Source: an uncultured bacterium (lineage in GTDB: Bacteria > Omnitrophota > Gorgyraeia > Ghiorseimicrobiales > Ghiorseimicrobiaceae). Taken from it: a DNA stretch of 64,000 bases. Within the stretch, counting starts at the first letter, position 1, and every line of letters starts with the position of its first letter. Shown piece by piece: positions 23,825 through 29,371 of the stretch. The translations under genes were made by a program, and so were the position numbers. The notes below the pieces were generated by a model. The model was not told the origin of the DNA. It ran no database searches and was given only the letters and a program-made list of their open reading frames with translations. The DNA lies in NCBI GenBank assembly GCA_913009335.1, contig CAJVXN010000001.1:71709-135708 (forward strand), in the 5' to 3' direction.

Positions 23825-24280
23825 TTAAATATACTTCGCGCGGCTGTACTCACTATACCTGCGAACAAGCTCATTCATGTCGCTGCAAGATACCAAAACC
23901 AAATTTAGTTTAAGTCCTCCCGCGGCCATTTCAGCCTTTTTCAGCATCCAGACGTCTAAAGGATTAATTACAGCCATGGTTACCGAATAATTATCCCGAT
24001 GCGCGGGAAAACATTTAAAATCTAAAATCAATGAAGGATCAAATTTACCAACAAACTTCCAGTCAATATATTTATCTTTCATGCTCACATAGGGAATGCC
24101 GAATTGTTCCGAGAGCACAATCAATAGATCCTTTTCTTTAATTGCTCTTCTTTTTAATAATAATGCGCCTAAGAATTCATCAGTTCTCTTTTGCTCGGCT
24201 AGCGCTCCGTTTAATTGCTCTTGAGTTATCAAACCCTTTGCGATTAAAACCTCACCCAGTTGCTTCTGTTCTTTTTTCAT
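23825..24280 (-). CDS. Standalone MshEN-like (GspE N-terminal) domain protein, predicted c-di-GMP receptor
   Basis: 151 aa. Two tandem MshEN-type motifs: [24 protein letters not shown] and [25 protein letters not shown]. The start codon overlaps the atpD-like stop (ATGA). Confidence 0.7.
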
Positions 24281-25725
24281 GAAACTAAGGCGCCTATAAG
24301 ATAGAATTCTTCTTCCGGCCTCTTGTCAAATTTTCCCGATAAAATTTTTTCACACCCTTGAATAGTCTGCTCTGTATTTACATATTCGCCCTTTTTCCCG
24401 GTATAGGCCTCAGCTACAAAAAACGGCTGAGTAAGAAAATTCTGAAGTTTTCTCGCGCGTTCATAAATCATGCGATCGGCCGTAGATAATTCGTCTATAC
24501 CGATAACTAAAACAATACGCCTTAACTCTTCGTATCGATTAAACGCCTTAATTACTTCTTGCGCGGTTTCAAAATGCCTCTTGCCCACTATATCCACATC
24601 TAAATTAGCGCTCGATGAAAGCAGAGGATCAATTGCCGGATAAAGGCCAAGCTGCACCCGCTCACGCGAAAGAACCATGACGGAATCTAAAAAACTAAAA
24701 AGCGCCACAACTGCCGGATCAGTCAAATCATCTGCCGGCACATAAACAGCTTCAATTGACGTAATCGAACCTCCAACATCAGACGAAGTTCGTATCCTTT
24801 CATGAAATTCGCTTGCCTCAGAAATCAATGTCGGCTGATATCCTGTTTCAGAAGGAACCCGGCCTAAAAGCGTAGATATTTCGGCTCCGGCCTGAACATA
24901 TCTAAAAATATTATCGACAAAAAGCAAAACATCCTGATTACGGCGCTGAATTGCTTCTGCTAAAGTAATACCTGTCATTGCCACACCAAAACGAGCCCCG
25001 GGAGGCTCATTCATCTGCCCGAAAACCATCATTGTCTTAGAAAGAACCCCGTGCTTGGAAAGCTCAAAATAAAGCTCGTTTCCCTCGCGGATACGTTCAC
25101 CTACCCCGGTAAAAACACACGCACCATGATGCTTCTTAACAATATGCTCAATAATCTCAAGAGTTAATATGCTCTTGCCCAGTGCCGCGCCTCCTAAGAT
25201 ACCGTTTTTACTACCCTTCACCAAAGGAAAAAGAAGATCAATTATCTTAATCCCCGTTTCCATAGGCTCGAAAGCTTCCTTTCCGATTTTTTTAGTCTTA
25301 ATGCGGCTGCCCATTTGGGGCCTTCTAATGGGGAATTTCTCATCGCAAATGATATCGCCTTTTTGATCTATTGGGTGACCCAACACATTAATGATACGGC
25401 CGCATAAATTCTCACCGGTCGGTATTTTAATTGGCTCGCCTGTACTTACAGCTAAGGCATTTCGCTGGAGATTTATAGTAGAATTAATCGCGATACAACG
25501 CGCGATATTACCGGGCAAATGCTCCGCGACCTCTAAAACAATCTCCTCATTATCGATATTGGAGGTGTTAATAACATTGAAAATATTCGGTACATCTTCC
25601 GCCTTTGTAAACTTAACATCTACAACAGGCCCCTGCACTGAAACTACGCGCCCCTTGCCGGATTTATCGTTATTATTTTGCATAAATTGCTCTTGCTGCG
25701 AAAAGTTCACGCATAGTCCTGTCAA
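24277..25725 (-). CDS. atpD: F-type ATPase beta subunit (probable true start at 25683, Met15)
   Basis: Collinear with E. coli beta. P-loop [41 protein letters not shown]-like motif, DELSTAD. Starting at Met15 gives [23 protein letters not shown] and reduces the overlap with gamma to 11 nt. Confidence 0.9.
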
Positions 25726-26518
25726 TAAGTTCGTGACGGATACGAAAGTATTCCTGCTTTACCTTTTTATCAATATCTTTCAATTTTTGAAGGCTTCCCT
25801 CAAGATGTATATAACGTGCCGCGAACTCCGCCAGACGGCTTAACCAAAAAATATCATAGATCTTCTGCCCCATCCATAAATATACCAAATACTCCGTGAT
25901 ATCGTCAGAGCCAGACTCCATAATAACATCGCGCACATCATTAGAGGCAGAGGCATCTTTTTTAAGCGGCGAATACGGTAGAAGCTGAAAAGAATGCACG
26001 CTTTGCACCGTAAAAGAAACCGGACGCGGATAAACTACCGTTACCCGGCCGAACGCGCCCGAAAGAACCTTATCGACAATATAATCTCTTAACTGCATCG
26101 CCTGCCCGTATCTTTGCTCGTCGGAAATCCCGGGAAAGCTGACAAACGACATATCACTGCCGCGCCCATAGATTTTACCGCGCTCACCAATAATAGCAAG
26201 CCTGCCGGAATTCTTAGCAAGCTCACTAAAAGCCGCGTTCATAACCTGCATATTAAGTCCGCCTAAAAAACCGCTATCAGAAGTAATTGCTACTACGAAC
26301 TGTGTCTTATTTTTAGAATTCAAAAACGCATGGTTGATTTTTGTAATATCGAGATTTTCGAAAAAACCATCGATTGCGCGGATAAAATCCTCATAGGTTT
26401 CTATCTTTGTCTCTAACGCGCGATATTGCGATACGGCTATTGTCTTTAGAGTTTCGACCAGGCTCGAAAGTCCTTTATTAAAATCTAAATCTTCTTTTAT
26501 TTTCGCAAGTGTGCGCAT
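25673..26518 (-). CDS. atpG: F-type ATPase gamma subunit
   Basis: 281 aa. N- and C-terminal coiled-coil helices ([33 protein letters not shown] ... [18 protein letters not shown]) are typical of gamma. Confidence 0.85.
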
Positions 26519-26534
26519 TAGGCAAAATCTCTAT

Positions 26535-28019
26535 TTACACCTTTTGCTTAAAATACTCTCTGAGATGTTCATTAAGTTTATTTTTTAAATCTTCGTTTAA
26601 TTCCTTTGTTTTTCTAAGCTCTGAGAAAAAATCCTTCTGGCGCGCTAAAATAAACTTAAAGATATCTTGCTTGAATTGTTTTATCTGTGAAACAGACAAG
26701 ACATCCAGCATGCCCTGGTTTAAAACATTCAGATAAACAATCTGCTCTTCCACGGCAATCGGTTTATTCTTATCCTGAATGATAAGCTGATTTATTGCCT
26801 CGCCTCTTTTCAGCCTAAGTTCCGCCTCTTGGGAAAGCCCTGTTGTTCGCAACTGCGTCATCTGCAAAAGTTCTTTATATTGAATGTAATCCAGCCTTAA
26901 TGTTTTACTTGCTTCCCGCATAGCCTTCCATTGCGCTTTATTGCCGATACGGGAAACCGAAAGCCCAAAATCAATAGCCGGCTTAAATCCCTTATTAAAA
27001 AGTGCTGTCGAAAAATATAACTGGCCGTCTGTCATAGAAATAATATTAGTCGATATATACCCGGTAACATCTCCCTGTAAAATCTCAACAATAGGAAAAA
27101 ATGTCATTGAACCACCACCTAATTCCGGCTTTAAGTATCCCGCGCGTTCCATTAACTGCGAATGAATATAAAATATATCTCCCGGATAAGCTTCTCTCCC
27201 GGGAGCACGCTCAAGCAGTAGTGATATTTGCCTGTATACCCAGGCATGTTTGGTCAGGTCATCAAAAACCACAAAAACATCCTTGCCCTTAGACATAAAA
27301 TATTCACCCAGCATACATGCCGTATATGGCGCTAAATACTGCTCCCCCGTAGACAAAGAAGCCACACCGCTTACTACTACCGTATAACTTAATGCGTCTT
27401 TTTCCATCAATGTTCGCACTACTTTCAAAAGACTGGAATAGGGTTTTCCAATACAACAATAAATACATATAACATCTTTACCTTTTTGATTCAAAATAGC
27501 ATCTATACCTACTGTAGTTTTTCCGGTAAGCCTATCTCCGATAATCAACTGACGCTGCCCTTTCGCGATAGGTATGATCGCGTCCAAAAGCAAAGCCCCC
27601 GTCTCAAACGTCTCCTTCAACGGAACACGCTCCATAACACCGGGTGCTACTTTAAATACGGGAAGAGTTTCATCCGCCCGAATGACTCCGAGATCGTCTT
27701 GCACCTCACAAAGTCCGTTTACTATGCGCCCGATAAAAGCATCCGACACCGGAAGATTTAAAGATCTTCCTTTATTGTATATCTCATCTCCGGCTCGAAT
27801 ACCGCCGGTATCACCCAAGACTAAAATCTGCACTTTATCTTCCGTAAAACCAAGCACCAAACCTAAAACACCGCTAGCAAACTCTACTATTTGCCCATTT
27901 ACGCAATATGGAAGGCCCGTGGCAATAATAACGAATTTACGCACAGACGCAACATGTCCGATCTCTTTAACATCAAACTTTCTATCGCTATTGCCTCTCT
28001 TTGGTTTGGTCTTATTCAT
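26535..28019 (-). CDS. atpA: F-type ATPase alpha subunit
   Basis: 494 aa. P-loop GDRLTGKTTVGIDAILNQ. Conserved alpha blocks ERAPGREAYPGDIFYIHSQLMERAG and ISMTDGQLYF. Overlaps the b/delta gene by 8 nt. Confidence 0.9.
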   Translation of the reverse strand: MNKTKPKRGNSDRKFDVKEIGHVASVRKFVIIATGLPYCVNGQIVEFASGVLGLVLGFTEDKVQILVLGDTGGIRAGDEIYNKGRSLNLPVSDAFIGRIVNGLCEVQDDLGVIRADETLPVFKVAPGVMERVPLKETFETGALLLDAIIPIAKGQRQLIIGDRLTGKTTVGIDAILNQKGKDVICIYCCIGKPYSSLLKVVRTLMEKDALSYTVVVSGVASLSTGEQYLAPYTACMLGEYFMSKGKDVFVVFDDLTKHAWVYRQISLLLERAPGREAYPGDIFYIHSQLMERAGYLKPELGGGSMTFFPIVEILQGDVTGYISTNIISMTDGQLYFSTALFNKGFKPAIDFGLSVSRIGNKAQWKAMREASKTLRLDYIQYKELLQMTQLRTTGLSQEAELRLKRGEAINQLIIQDKNKPIAVEEQIVYLNVLNQGMLDVLSVSQIKQFKQDIFKFILARQKDFFSELRKTKELNEDLKNKLNEHLREYFKQKV

Positions 28020-28876: not shown

Positions 28877-28879
28877 ACT

Positions 28880-29098
28880 TTATTGCGCGGAAAATAGCTG
28901 AAAAACAATTAACATTGCCGCAAACGCCACCATCTGGGTCAATACCAACGCTATAATCATAGCTGTAAAAATTTTAGGAGCTGCCGAGGGATTACGGCCT
29001 AATGCCCTAATACTGGCAAAACTAGTAGCGGCAAACACCGCGCACGGCCCTAAAATGCATATTCCAAAAATTACAATAAGTGCTACATTACGACTCAT
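28880..29098 (-). CDS. F-type ATPase c-subunit (proteolipid) homolog lacking the conserved ion-binding carboxylate (Gln55)
   Basis: 72-aa two-helix hairpin with the loop RNP (E. coli R41-Q42-P43). A gapless alignment puts Gln55 (codon CAG at 28934-28936) at the E. coli Asp61 position. The helix-1 glycine motif is degenerate (ILGPCAVFAATSFAS). Confidence 0.7.
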   Translation of the reverse strand: MSRNVALIVIFGICILGPCAVFAATSFASIRALGRNPSAAPKIFTAMIIALVLTQMVAFAAMLIVFQLFSAQ

Positions 29099-29137
29099 CT
29101 AACCCAGATTTTTTTATTAGAAAAATCTGCCCGTAGT

Positions 29138-29371
29138 TCAAGCTTCCTCAATTATTACTGTTACCTTATTTTGATCAACTCTTATGATCCCTCTACGTAT
29201 CAAAAGTCCTTCTCCGTCAATAAGTAATTTCCCGGAAATAAGACGGCTTAAAATACGCTTATGAAACGGCCCCACCTCAAATACCCCCTGTTCTCCGGGC
29301 ACAACGATACTTTTTACTTTACCTTTAAATACAATATTTTGAGGATTAAAAATAGAGACGTCTAGAAACAT
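29138..29371 (-). CDS. atpC: F-type ATPase epsilon subunit, N-terminal beta-sandwich domain only
   Basis: 77 aa, LDVSIFNPQNIVFKGKVKSIVVPGEQGVFEVGPFHKRILSRLISGKLLID.GEGLLIRRGIIRVDQNKVTVIIEEA. This follows the epsilon N-domain consensus (L.V.S...F.G.V..V..PG..G..G....H.P.L..L..G...I........GG.LEV....VTVLA..A). There is no C-terminal helical hairpin. Confidence 0.6.
   Translation of the reverse strand: MFLDVSIFNPQNIVFKGKVKSIVVPGEQGVFEVGPFHKRILSRLISGKLLIDGEGLLIRRGIIRVDQNKVTVIIEEA

Follow-up and report, generated by a model that had tools for sequence, protein, structure and literature searches.

Within a 64-kb stretch (hereafter the window) of the 138-kb Omnitrophota contig CAJVXN010000001.1, we identified the genes of an F-type ATPase lying, on the minus strand, between a gene for a giant protein of 8471 amino acids (aa) and the genes of an apparatus resembling a type II secretion system (T2SS) or type IV pilus (T4P). 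Comparison of this module with its relatives, analysed as loci with flanks of ±10 kb, suggests that it is probably an ATP-hydrolysing F-type motor that is not chemiosmotic, and that it forms a component of a giant-protein/T2SS-like machine. The module has a well-defined composition, is conserved across a clade, is linked to secretion genes, has no subunit a in its locus, and possesses a c subunit whose membrane carboxylate is evolutionarily labile; its function, rotary or export-energising, is what we infer from these properties. The initial annotation of the window had already described an F1 part, a stalk and a c-ring without an ion path beside a T2SS/T4P-like apparatus and a giant protein, and had argued against a housekeeping ATP synthase. 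Both points are strengthened by the comparative data.

Six consecutive minus-strand genes encode, in order, epsilon (29138-29371; 77 aa, matching ATP-synt_DE_N only, Pfam E 1.7e-12), a divergent c subunit forming a 72-aa hairpin (28880-29098; ATP-synt_C, 19.1 bits), a stalk protein with b and delta parts (28012-28752; Pfam ATP-synt_B and OSCP), alpha (26535-28019; three Pfam domains), a full-length gamma (25673-26518; Pfam) and beta (24277-25683; Pfam). Both coordinates and Pfam matches agree with the gene order first proposed for the module. The genes for the stalk protein and alpha overlap by 8 nucleotides (nt), and those for gamma and beta by 11 nt when beta is counted from its ATG. The open reading frame (ORF) call for beta had reached a TTG at 25725; the real start is probably the ATG at 25683, which yields the 468-aa sequence of database protein P0001. 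As previously noted, beta shares an ATGA overlap, stop on start, with a stand-alone MshEN-domain gene (23825-24280, -; Pfam). The gene that begins 459 nt past the beta stop, after the MshEN gene, encodes a secretion ATPase of the GspE/PilB type (21602-23821, -; Pfam) that carries MshEN at its N-terminus and PilZ at its C-terminus. On the other side, a 277-aa ORF without a Pfam match (29379-30212, -) ends 7 nt before epsilon, and the giant ORF lies upstream of it (30301-55716, -). The 277-aa ORF had been overlooked, and the 88-nt spacer formerly placed next to the ATPase module is in reality the distance between this ORF and the giant one.

To place the module in an evolutionary context, one genome per GTDB species was scanned, yielding 77 Omnitrophota-type loci (beta 56-82% identical). 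Three canonical operons, from a Bacillota metagenome-assembled genome (MAG), Rubrobacter and Desulforudis, served as controls (beta 49-50% identical), and all ORFs of these loci were labelled by phmmer. Beta matched more than 120 database clusters at 75-83% identity, the named ones being Omnitrophica or Omnitrophota except for one MAG labelled ‘Deltaproteobacteria’, and the exact beta protein of the window carries the database label Candidatus Omnitrophica. Against representatives at 50% identity, most of them fused or of odd length, the family forms a single cluster (63% identity), with all others at most 51% identical, and a neighbour-joining (NJ) tree of beta recovered it as a clade separate from the three canonical outgroups and E. 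coli. Public pipelines label the relatives ‘F0F1 ATP synthase subunit beta’ or ‘F-type H+-transporting ATPase subunit c’, and several of the MAGs bearing these Omnitrophota-like loci are recorded as Planctomycetia or Planctomycetales.

Essentially every locus shows the order [277-aa module]-epsilon-c-b/delta-alpha-gamma-beta-(MshEN)-GspE-GspF-PepMA-GspG-...-GspK-PilMN-PilO. GspE follows beta, either directly or past MshEN, in about 62 of the 64 loci with enough downstream sequence, which is the synteny with mshEN and gspE that the initial annotation had suggested looking for in related Omnitrophota. The 277-aa module stands ahead of epsilon in 38 of the 39 loci with enough upstream sequence and is thus a constant neighbour of that gene. 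Intergenic medians inside the ATPase module and into GspE and GspF range from -6 to 35 nt, and about 50 of the species-level loci have all six ATPase genes intact. Relative to the window, the median identity amounts to 75% for beta, 71% for c, 70% for alpha, 54% for both gamma and epsilon, and 41% for the b/delta protein. The near-invariant order, linkage and tight spacing indicate a conserved, operon-like feature of the clade rather than an accident of the window.

A few loci depart from this arrangement. In a deep-branching subgroup (L070, L076 and L077) alpha has been relocated ahead of epsilon, and in two of its members (L076, 3791-5873; L077, 2878-4188) this order is found together with a two-copy 277-aa module. 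Another locus, L067, carries a tandem pair of alpha paralogues (2859-5816). The most rearranged variant, L060 (1-21365), consists of GspC-like, secretin, tetratricopeptide repeat (TPR), b/delta, alpha, gamma, beta, unknown, Y1_Tnp and unknown genes followed by a giant ORF; neither epsilon nor c was detected near its F1 and stalk genes, which lie upstream of the giant gene.

Subunit a is absent from these loci. A phmmer search with E. coli AtpB (E<=10) returned no match in the window or in any of the 77 Omnitrophota loci within 10 kb, the only matches being to two control operons (E ~1e-22). A hidden Markov model (HMM) built from three AtpB sequences and run with no filters (--max) matched the controls at 1e-141 and 1e-148, while its best score among the Omnitrophota loci and the window was an E of 0.28. 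With both methods matching just control operons, the earlier statement that the 64 kb hold no subunit a stands. Whether atpB might lie just outside the window, a possibility raised in the initial annotation, could be judged from relatives: the upstream side of L060 holds GspC, a secretin and a TPR protein, and no atpB. The 277-aa protein was considered as a substitute for subunit a and rejected, as it has one C-terminal transmembrane (TM) helix and a periplasmic domain and is not a polytopic channel. For one example genome, number 221, the accessible part of the KEGG Orthology (KO) table in the supplement of Seymour et al. 2023 (PMC10066038) records K02111, K02112 and the V-type K02123 and K02124 as present and K02108-10 as absent.

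The c subunit itself has a divergent sequence, and its identity, weak from the window protein alone, is firm for the family from sequence matches. PF00137 was matched by the c subunits of 31 out of 33 non-redundant relatives at E<=0.01 (best E 3.4e-9), and a profile of the family matches a solved ATP synthase c subunit (9itj_H, E 2e-6), in an alignment that places GRNP on GRNPE, ‘faEALAI’ on ‘FTEALAI’, and the Glu/Gln column on the ion-binding Glu. The c subunit of the window has neither Asp nor Glu anywhere in the protein; when it is aligned with c of E. coli and with two canonical c subunits of the control operons, its Gln55 falls in the column of E. coli cAsp61. The initial report that c lacks the essential carboxylate therefore holds for the window. 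Across the 54 c subunits recovered, this column contains Gln in 26, Glu in 20, Ala, Val and Thr in two each, and Phe and Leu in one each, such that the membrane carboxylate is absent from 34 of 54. A sequencing error can be ruled out as the origin of the Gln, since L005, the closest neighbour of the window in the beta tree, and 25 other loci carry it as well; it is not a fixed trait, with ~40-60% of relatives keeping Glu. A wider database search recovered 2996 relatives. Among the best 120 clusters, a set biased towards a Glu-bearing consensus, Glu occurs in 74 and Gln in 46, and the loop motif GRNPS in 120 of 120.

Mapping of the cAsp61 site onto the beta NJ tree requires at least 15 parsimony changes, a rough number given the poorly resolved crown, and shows Glu throughout the deepest branches. 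The carboxylate column is among the more variable ones of helix 2 (1.78 bits). Little or no variation occurs in the cytoplasmic loop, I-x-A-L-G-R-N-P-S-x-A-P-K-I-F, and c as a whole has nine positions that are invariant across the family. In canonical enzymes this loop contacts gamma and epsilon. Replacement of the Asp or Glu of c by Asn or Gln abolishes ion translocation, and Gln is nearly isosteric with protonated Glu. Free exchange of Glu and Gln is what would be expected at a site that never needs to be deprotonated, and from this pattern of substitution we infer that ion binding is dispensable and that the c-ring has been retained as a structural or rotor element. Two further features of the c family were also observed: the helix-1 packing motif of canonical c subunits, GxGxGxG, is replaced by G-P-C-A-V-F-A-A, and the pair Phe66-Gln67, close to where helix 2 ends on the periplasmic side, hardly varies. 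These may represent a docking site or reflect an altered ring stoichiometry.

The catalytic motifs of F1 are intact. The P-loops of alpha (GDRLTGKT) and beta (GGAALGKS) are both present. Conservation across 64-77 relatives is at least 90% for the P-loop and Arg finger of alpha and, in beta, for the P-loop, Walker B, the catalytic Glu of the GER motif and a DELSxxD loop, in line with the catalytic competence originally read from the window. Alpha is closest to canonical F1, at 440-485 bits against Bacillus PS3-type and related chains, and beta reaches 411-492 bits with the beta chains of 57 F1 entries, compared with 343 bits for beta of the Mycoplasma mobile G1-ATPase; for each subunit, the best PDB matches are its F1 counterparts. 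Epsilon, by comparison, is reduced throughout the family to 74-113 aa (median 78), retaining the N-terminal beta-sandwich and lacking any C-terminal helical domain. In bacterial F1Fo enzymes this domain inhibits hydrolysis, and its loss points to hydrolysis as the direction in which the motor runs.

The peripheral stalk is also reduced. The protein was correctly recognised as a fusion of b to delta, with the qualification that only the C-terminal domain of delta is included: it covers just residues 14-125 of E. coli b and 101-175 of E. coli delta, and the delta N-terminal domain is absent. Its b part comprises a TM helix and a helix of ~130 residues. In a single-sequence structural model, residues 2-134 form one continuous, confident helix, and the C-terminal domain has a predicted local distance difference test score (pLDDT) below 50. 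Alpha, in turn, is without the N-terminal helix of ~20 residues that binds the delta N-domain, and this is so family-wide. With the delta N-domain and the alpha N-helix both lost, the canonical joint between the stator and the crown of F1 is absent on both sides.

The 277-aa protein upstream of epsilon has highly conserved homologues (E down to 1e-100), which occur in three forms. In about 27 related loci the module constitutes the last ~240 residues of a long upstream ORF; these fused ORFs are open-ended and exceed 1500-2100 aa inside the fetched flank. In about ten loci, including the window, it is a gene of its own with its own signal peptide, and in three deep-branching loci it is tandemly duplicated within a protein of 436-474 aa. 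Loci that illustrate the fused, split and duplicated forms include the window (29379-30212 and 30301-55716), L001, L030, L015, L045 and L051. The giant protein of the window, which has an N-terminal signal/anchor helix, a T/S/D/V-rich composition and a few immunoglobulin-like domains as its sole Pfam matches, ends with …GGLEDPVVIFE precisely where its fused relatives run on (…GGVDAPIISTSL-QPGSVKFRI…) into the module. A stop at the exact junction of the fused relatives indicates a gene fission in the window. In an AlphaFold model of the 277-aa protein (pLDDT 87.8), a signal/TM helix is followed by a beta-sandwich, by a bundle of three helices and, at the C-terminus, by a long TM helix in which Trp221, Phe225, Phe230 and Trp242 are invariant. 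Invariant aromatic residues of this kind, unusual for a passive anchor, suggest that the module has a specific intramembrane partner.

Taken together, these findings are best accommodated by a complex that would comprise alpha3beta3, gamma, a short epsilon, a b-delta(C-domain) stalk and a c-ring, and that would do no chemiosmotic work. ATP hydrolysis in F1 would turn gamma and epsilon with the attached c-ring in the inner membrane, and the torque, or the F1 cycle itself, would perform mechanical work for the giant-protein/T2SS-like apparatus. The membrane partner that takes up this load would most likely be the bitopic module encoded upstream of epsilon, or the GspF platform. Cyclic di-GMP (c-di-GMP) might gate the system through the MshEN and PilZ domains, together with a histidine kinase-GGDEF (HK-GGDEF) protein encoded downstream. 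In its most specific form, this proposal takes the a-less, ion-blind c-ring as a true ATP-driven membrane rotor, with either the TM-anchored module of the giant protein or the pseudopilus platform as its load, which we consider conceivable if rather doubtful. Were it true, the module would define a new class of motor, in which an F-type ATPase twists a giant fibre or a pilus outside the cell so that it can attach to prey or host, and would offer a living analogue of the proposed step from rotary ATPase to secretion-system ATPase.

Several observations weigh against a motor that has lost ion coupling and works on the secretion apparatus. The lost stator joint is the main structural argument against a classical rotor and stator, and the stalk may be unable to hold F1 under torque. 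The c subunit of the window scores below the 24-bit cut-off of PF00137. Glu is kept at the ion-binding position in 20 of 54 species-level loci (37%) and 74 of the 120 top database clusters (62%), and residual ion binding may persist in the lineages that keep it. The negative searches for subunit a cover 64 kb of the 138-kb contig and ±10 kb around the relatives. Finally, a fold search with the 277-aa module returned generic helical bundles as its sole matches.

Among other explanations, an export energiser that is non-rotary or centred on F1, similar to FliI/FliH/FliJ, fares best, though we judge it unlikely. Here F1 would unfold or feed the giant protein or the pilins, and the c-ring and b-delta protein would act as anchors. 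In its favour, the b-delta(C-domain) fusion is reminiscent of FliH, the loss of the stator joint speaks against classical transmission of torque, and the module sits in a secretion operon beside a very large secreted substrate. However, the loop of c that binds gamma and epsilon is invariant and gamma is full length, as expected where rotor coupling is kept, and the differentiation of alpha from beta has been preserved, unlike in the homohexameric FliI. Furthermore, Pfam assigns ATP-synt_B and OSCP rather than FliH to the stalk protein, and the giant protein has a Sec-type signal peptide, such that a cytoplasmic unfoldase is not obviously needed.

A conventional, ion-coupled F1Fo enzyme, with subunit a encoded elsewhere in the genome and an incidental position next to secretion genes, appears highly improbable. 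Homologues of all F1 subunits, of c and of b are present with intact catalytic motifs, many relatives keep the Glu of c, and the searches for subunit a cover the window and the related loci, which leaves some room for it. On the other hand, the window c contains no acidic residue and 34 of 54 relatives have lost the carboxylate through repeated independent changes, none of the 77 loci has subunit a within 10 kb, and the linkage to GspE is near-universal and hence not incidental. The epsilon C-terminal domain, delta N-domain and alpha N-helix have also all been lost, and the literature distinguishes ‘respiratory’ from ‘symbiotic’ F-ATPases in Omnitrophota and reports V/A-type ATPases in most Gorgyraeia. 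A decaying, non-functional remnant of an ATP synthase that lost atpB is scarcely credible: it would account for the losses of a, the c carboxylate, the epsilon C-terminal domain and the delta N-domain, but not for six intact genes in about 50 loci, for beta and alpha sequences 56-82% and ~70% identical across the clade, for catalytic residues conserved to at least 90%, for nine invariant positions in c, or for the preserved order and tight spacing.

The secretion genes that follow the ATPase module continue on the minus strand, which carries every gene from ~4.1 kb to 64 kb of the window. Downstream of the GspE gene lie genes for a GspF/PilC platform protein (20334-21551) and a Peptidase_MA-family protein (19386-20330) whose position is kept in relatives. 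These are followed by a set (14384-19371) encoding a GspG-like major pseudopilin, minor pseudopilins (T2SSJ-like and GspK), a PilM-PilN fusion and a PilO/GspM-like protein. The last two had been labelled gspL and gspM, and the downstream gaps had been given as 50 nt or less throughout; three of the gaps in the T2SS-like part measure 105-119 nt. Promoter and terminator scans over 14-31 kb gave 44 versus 44.1 and 19 versus 14.6 hits in real and shuffled sequence, respectively, showing no excess.

Genes for histidine kinases, response regulators and the HK-GGDEF protein are located further downstream (7192-14362). The locus holds a self-contained c-di-GMP circuit: an HK-GGDEF hybrid (10336-11865) is encoded directly downstream with two response regulators and two more histidine kinases, while GspE carries or adjoins one PilZ domain and two domains of the MshEN family (21602-24280), which is known to bind c-di-GMP.

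Upstream of the giant gene, the same co-directional cluster is headed by a secretin of the GspD/PilQ family (62486-63988, -), and continues on the minus strand with a TPR/coiled-coil protein (61381-62451), two unknown proteins (60932-61378 and 60385-60912), a cyclophilin-type peptidyl-prolyl isomerase (58937-60388), an unknown protein (58213-58899), a 422-aa protein with an IS200-like Y1_Tnp domain (56642-57910), another unknown protein (56187-56639) and a MORN-repeat protein (55730-56185). Two distant loci (window, 56642-57910, -; L060, 12583-13893) share a Y1_Tnp protein of 422-436 aa in the equivalent spot on the upstream side of the giant gene; this protein looks like a conserved, possibly domesticated component rather than a mobile insertion sequence. 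At the opposite end of the window, plus-strand genes (108-3945) encode a pyridine-nucleotide-disulphide oxidoreductase and an 891-aa molybdopterin oxidoreductase with Fe-S domains (formate-dehydrogenase/NuoG-like), and a minus-strand gene (4106-6211) encodes a 701-aa VTT-PAP2-LssY_C fusion membrane protein. These oxidoreductases and the fusion protein (108-6211) are probably unrelated to the ATPase.

The initial annotation had put the module forward as a candidate for something previously undescribed, but the association of F-type ATPase and pilus genes in Omnitrophota is already on record. Across the phylum, Seymour et al. 2023 (Nat Microbiol; PMC10066038) found F-type ATPases that they termed “symbiotic” and non-respiratory next to clusters for type-4a pili (T4aP). 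Every Omnitrophota class has examples, and among Velamenicoccia 56 of 111 species do, V. archaeovorus LiM being one of them; the two sets of genes were at most 10 kb apart in 57 of 66 contigs. Their analysis used alpha/beta phylogeny and co-location only, and they proposed a role in attachment to, or motility on, hosts. The window conforms to their description in its Omnitrophota origin and in having F-type alpha and beta within 10 kb of a T4aP/T2SS-like cluster, and the genomes in question often contain giant ORFs. The two studies differ in that alpha was grouped by Seymour et al. with Mycoplasma type 2/3, while here canonical F1 subunits give by far the higher scores for both alpha and beta. 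The main text and searchable supplements of that study make no mention of subunit a, subunit c, the stalk, the carboxylate, the truncated epsilon or alpha, or the adjacency of the giant-protein module. Similarly, West-Roberts et al. 2023 described T2SS-like loci around Omnitrophota giant genes, and the ATPase is never mentioned. A 2026 preprint (bioRxiv 10.64898/2026.06.07.730766) examined 176 complete genomes and noted alpha and beta in 125 but gamma, by strict KO thresholds, in only 30, which was read as an incomplete F1Fo; this shortfall of gamma fits a divergent module of the kind described here. The ATPase/pilus association is therefore already known, and the subunit-level anatomy presented here appears to be new.

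If the proposed loss of ion coupling is correct, a phylum of ultra-small, probably predatory or epibiotic bacteria would possess a rotary F-ATPase that gave up ion translocation, kept its rotor ring and became firmly integrated with a secretion/pilus machine and a giant surface protein. Conversion of an ATP synthase into a mechanical energiser would then have happened independently a second time, the first being the Mycoplasma F1-like X0, and here alone with the c-ring kept, providing a natural test of the role of the ring when no ions move. Such a module also bears on the recruitment of rotary ATPases to export machines, as in FliI/FliH/FliJ. In addition, annotations as ‘F0F1 ATP synthase’ would, should the inference hold, inflate the chemiosmotic capacity predicted for Omnitrophota.

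Comparison with known systems further delineates the module. With canonical F1Fo operons (atpIBEFHAGDC) it shares homologous alpha, beta, gamma, epsilon, b, delta and c subunits, the order c-b-delta-alpha-gamma-beta and the catalytic residues. It differs in having neither a nor AtpI in the locus, in placing epsilon, shorn of its C-terminal domain, at the front, and in fusing b to delta; the catalytic alpha3beta3 core is thus retained, whereas the c carboxylate, an operon-encoded a and a full peripheral stalk are missing. N-ATPases, whose operon order is reportedly atpDCQRBEFAG, resemble it as non-housekeeping F-type operons with a rearranged gene order. They nevertheless keep a, an ion-binding c and AtpQ/AtpR, while the window has none of these, no extra small membrane ORFs and a different order. 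The flagellar FliI-FliH-FliJ complex is likewise a relative of rotary ATPases on a secretion machine, and FliH resembles a fusion of b and delta. FliI, however, is a homohexamer that serves a type III secretion system without a c-ring, whereas the window encodes separate alpha and beta, an ATP-synt gamma and an ATP-synt_B/OSCP stalk protein with no match to FliH.

In its proposed function, the module resembles the Mycoplasma F1-like X0 ATPases, of which Type 2 drives the gliding of M. mobile and Type 3 is required for MIB-MIP antibody cleavage (PMC3369863, PMC12994834, PMC11864180). Their seven-gene clusters encode alpha-, beta-, gamma- and epsilon-like subunits together with a 12-TM protein, a protein with a signal peptide and two TM helices, and a small cytoplasmic protein, and contain no c, b or delta (PMC3369863, PMC12994834). 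In both systems, F1-type subunits are encoded in the operon of a non-bioenergetic surface machine, and the N-terminal helix of alpha has been lost (PMC12994834). The Omnitrophota module, by contrast, keeps c and b/delta, is without a 12-TM protein, and has alpha and beta that are much less diverged, such that the two recruitments look independent.

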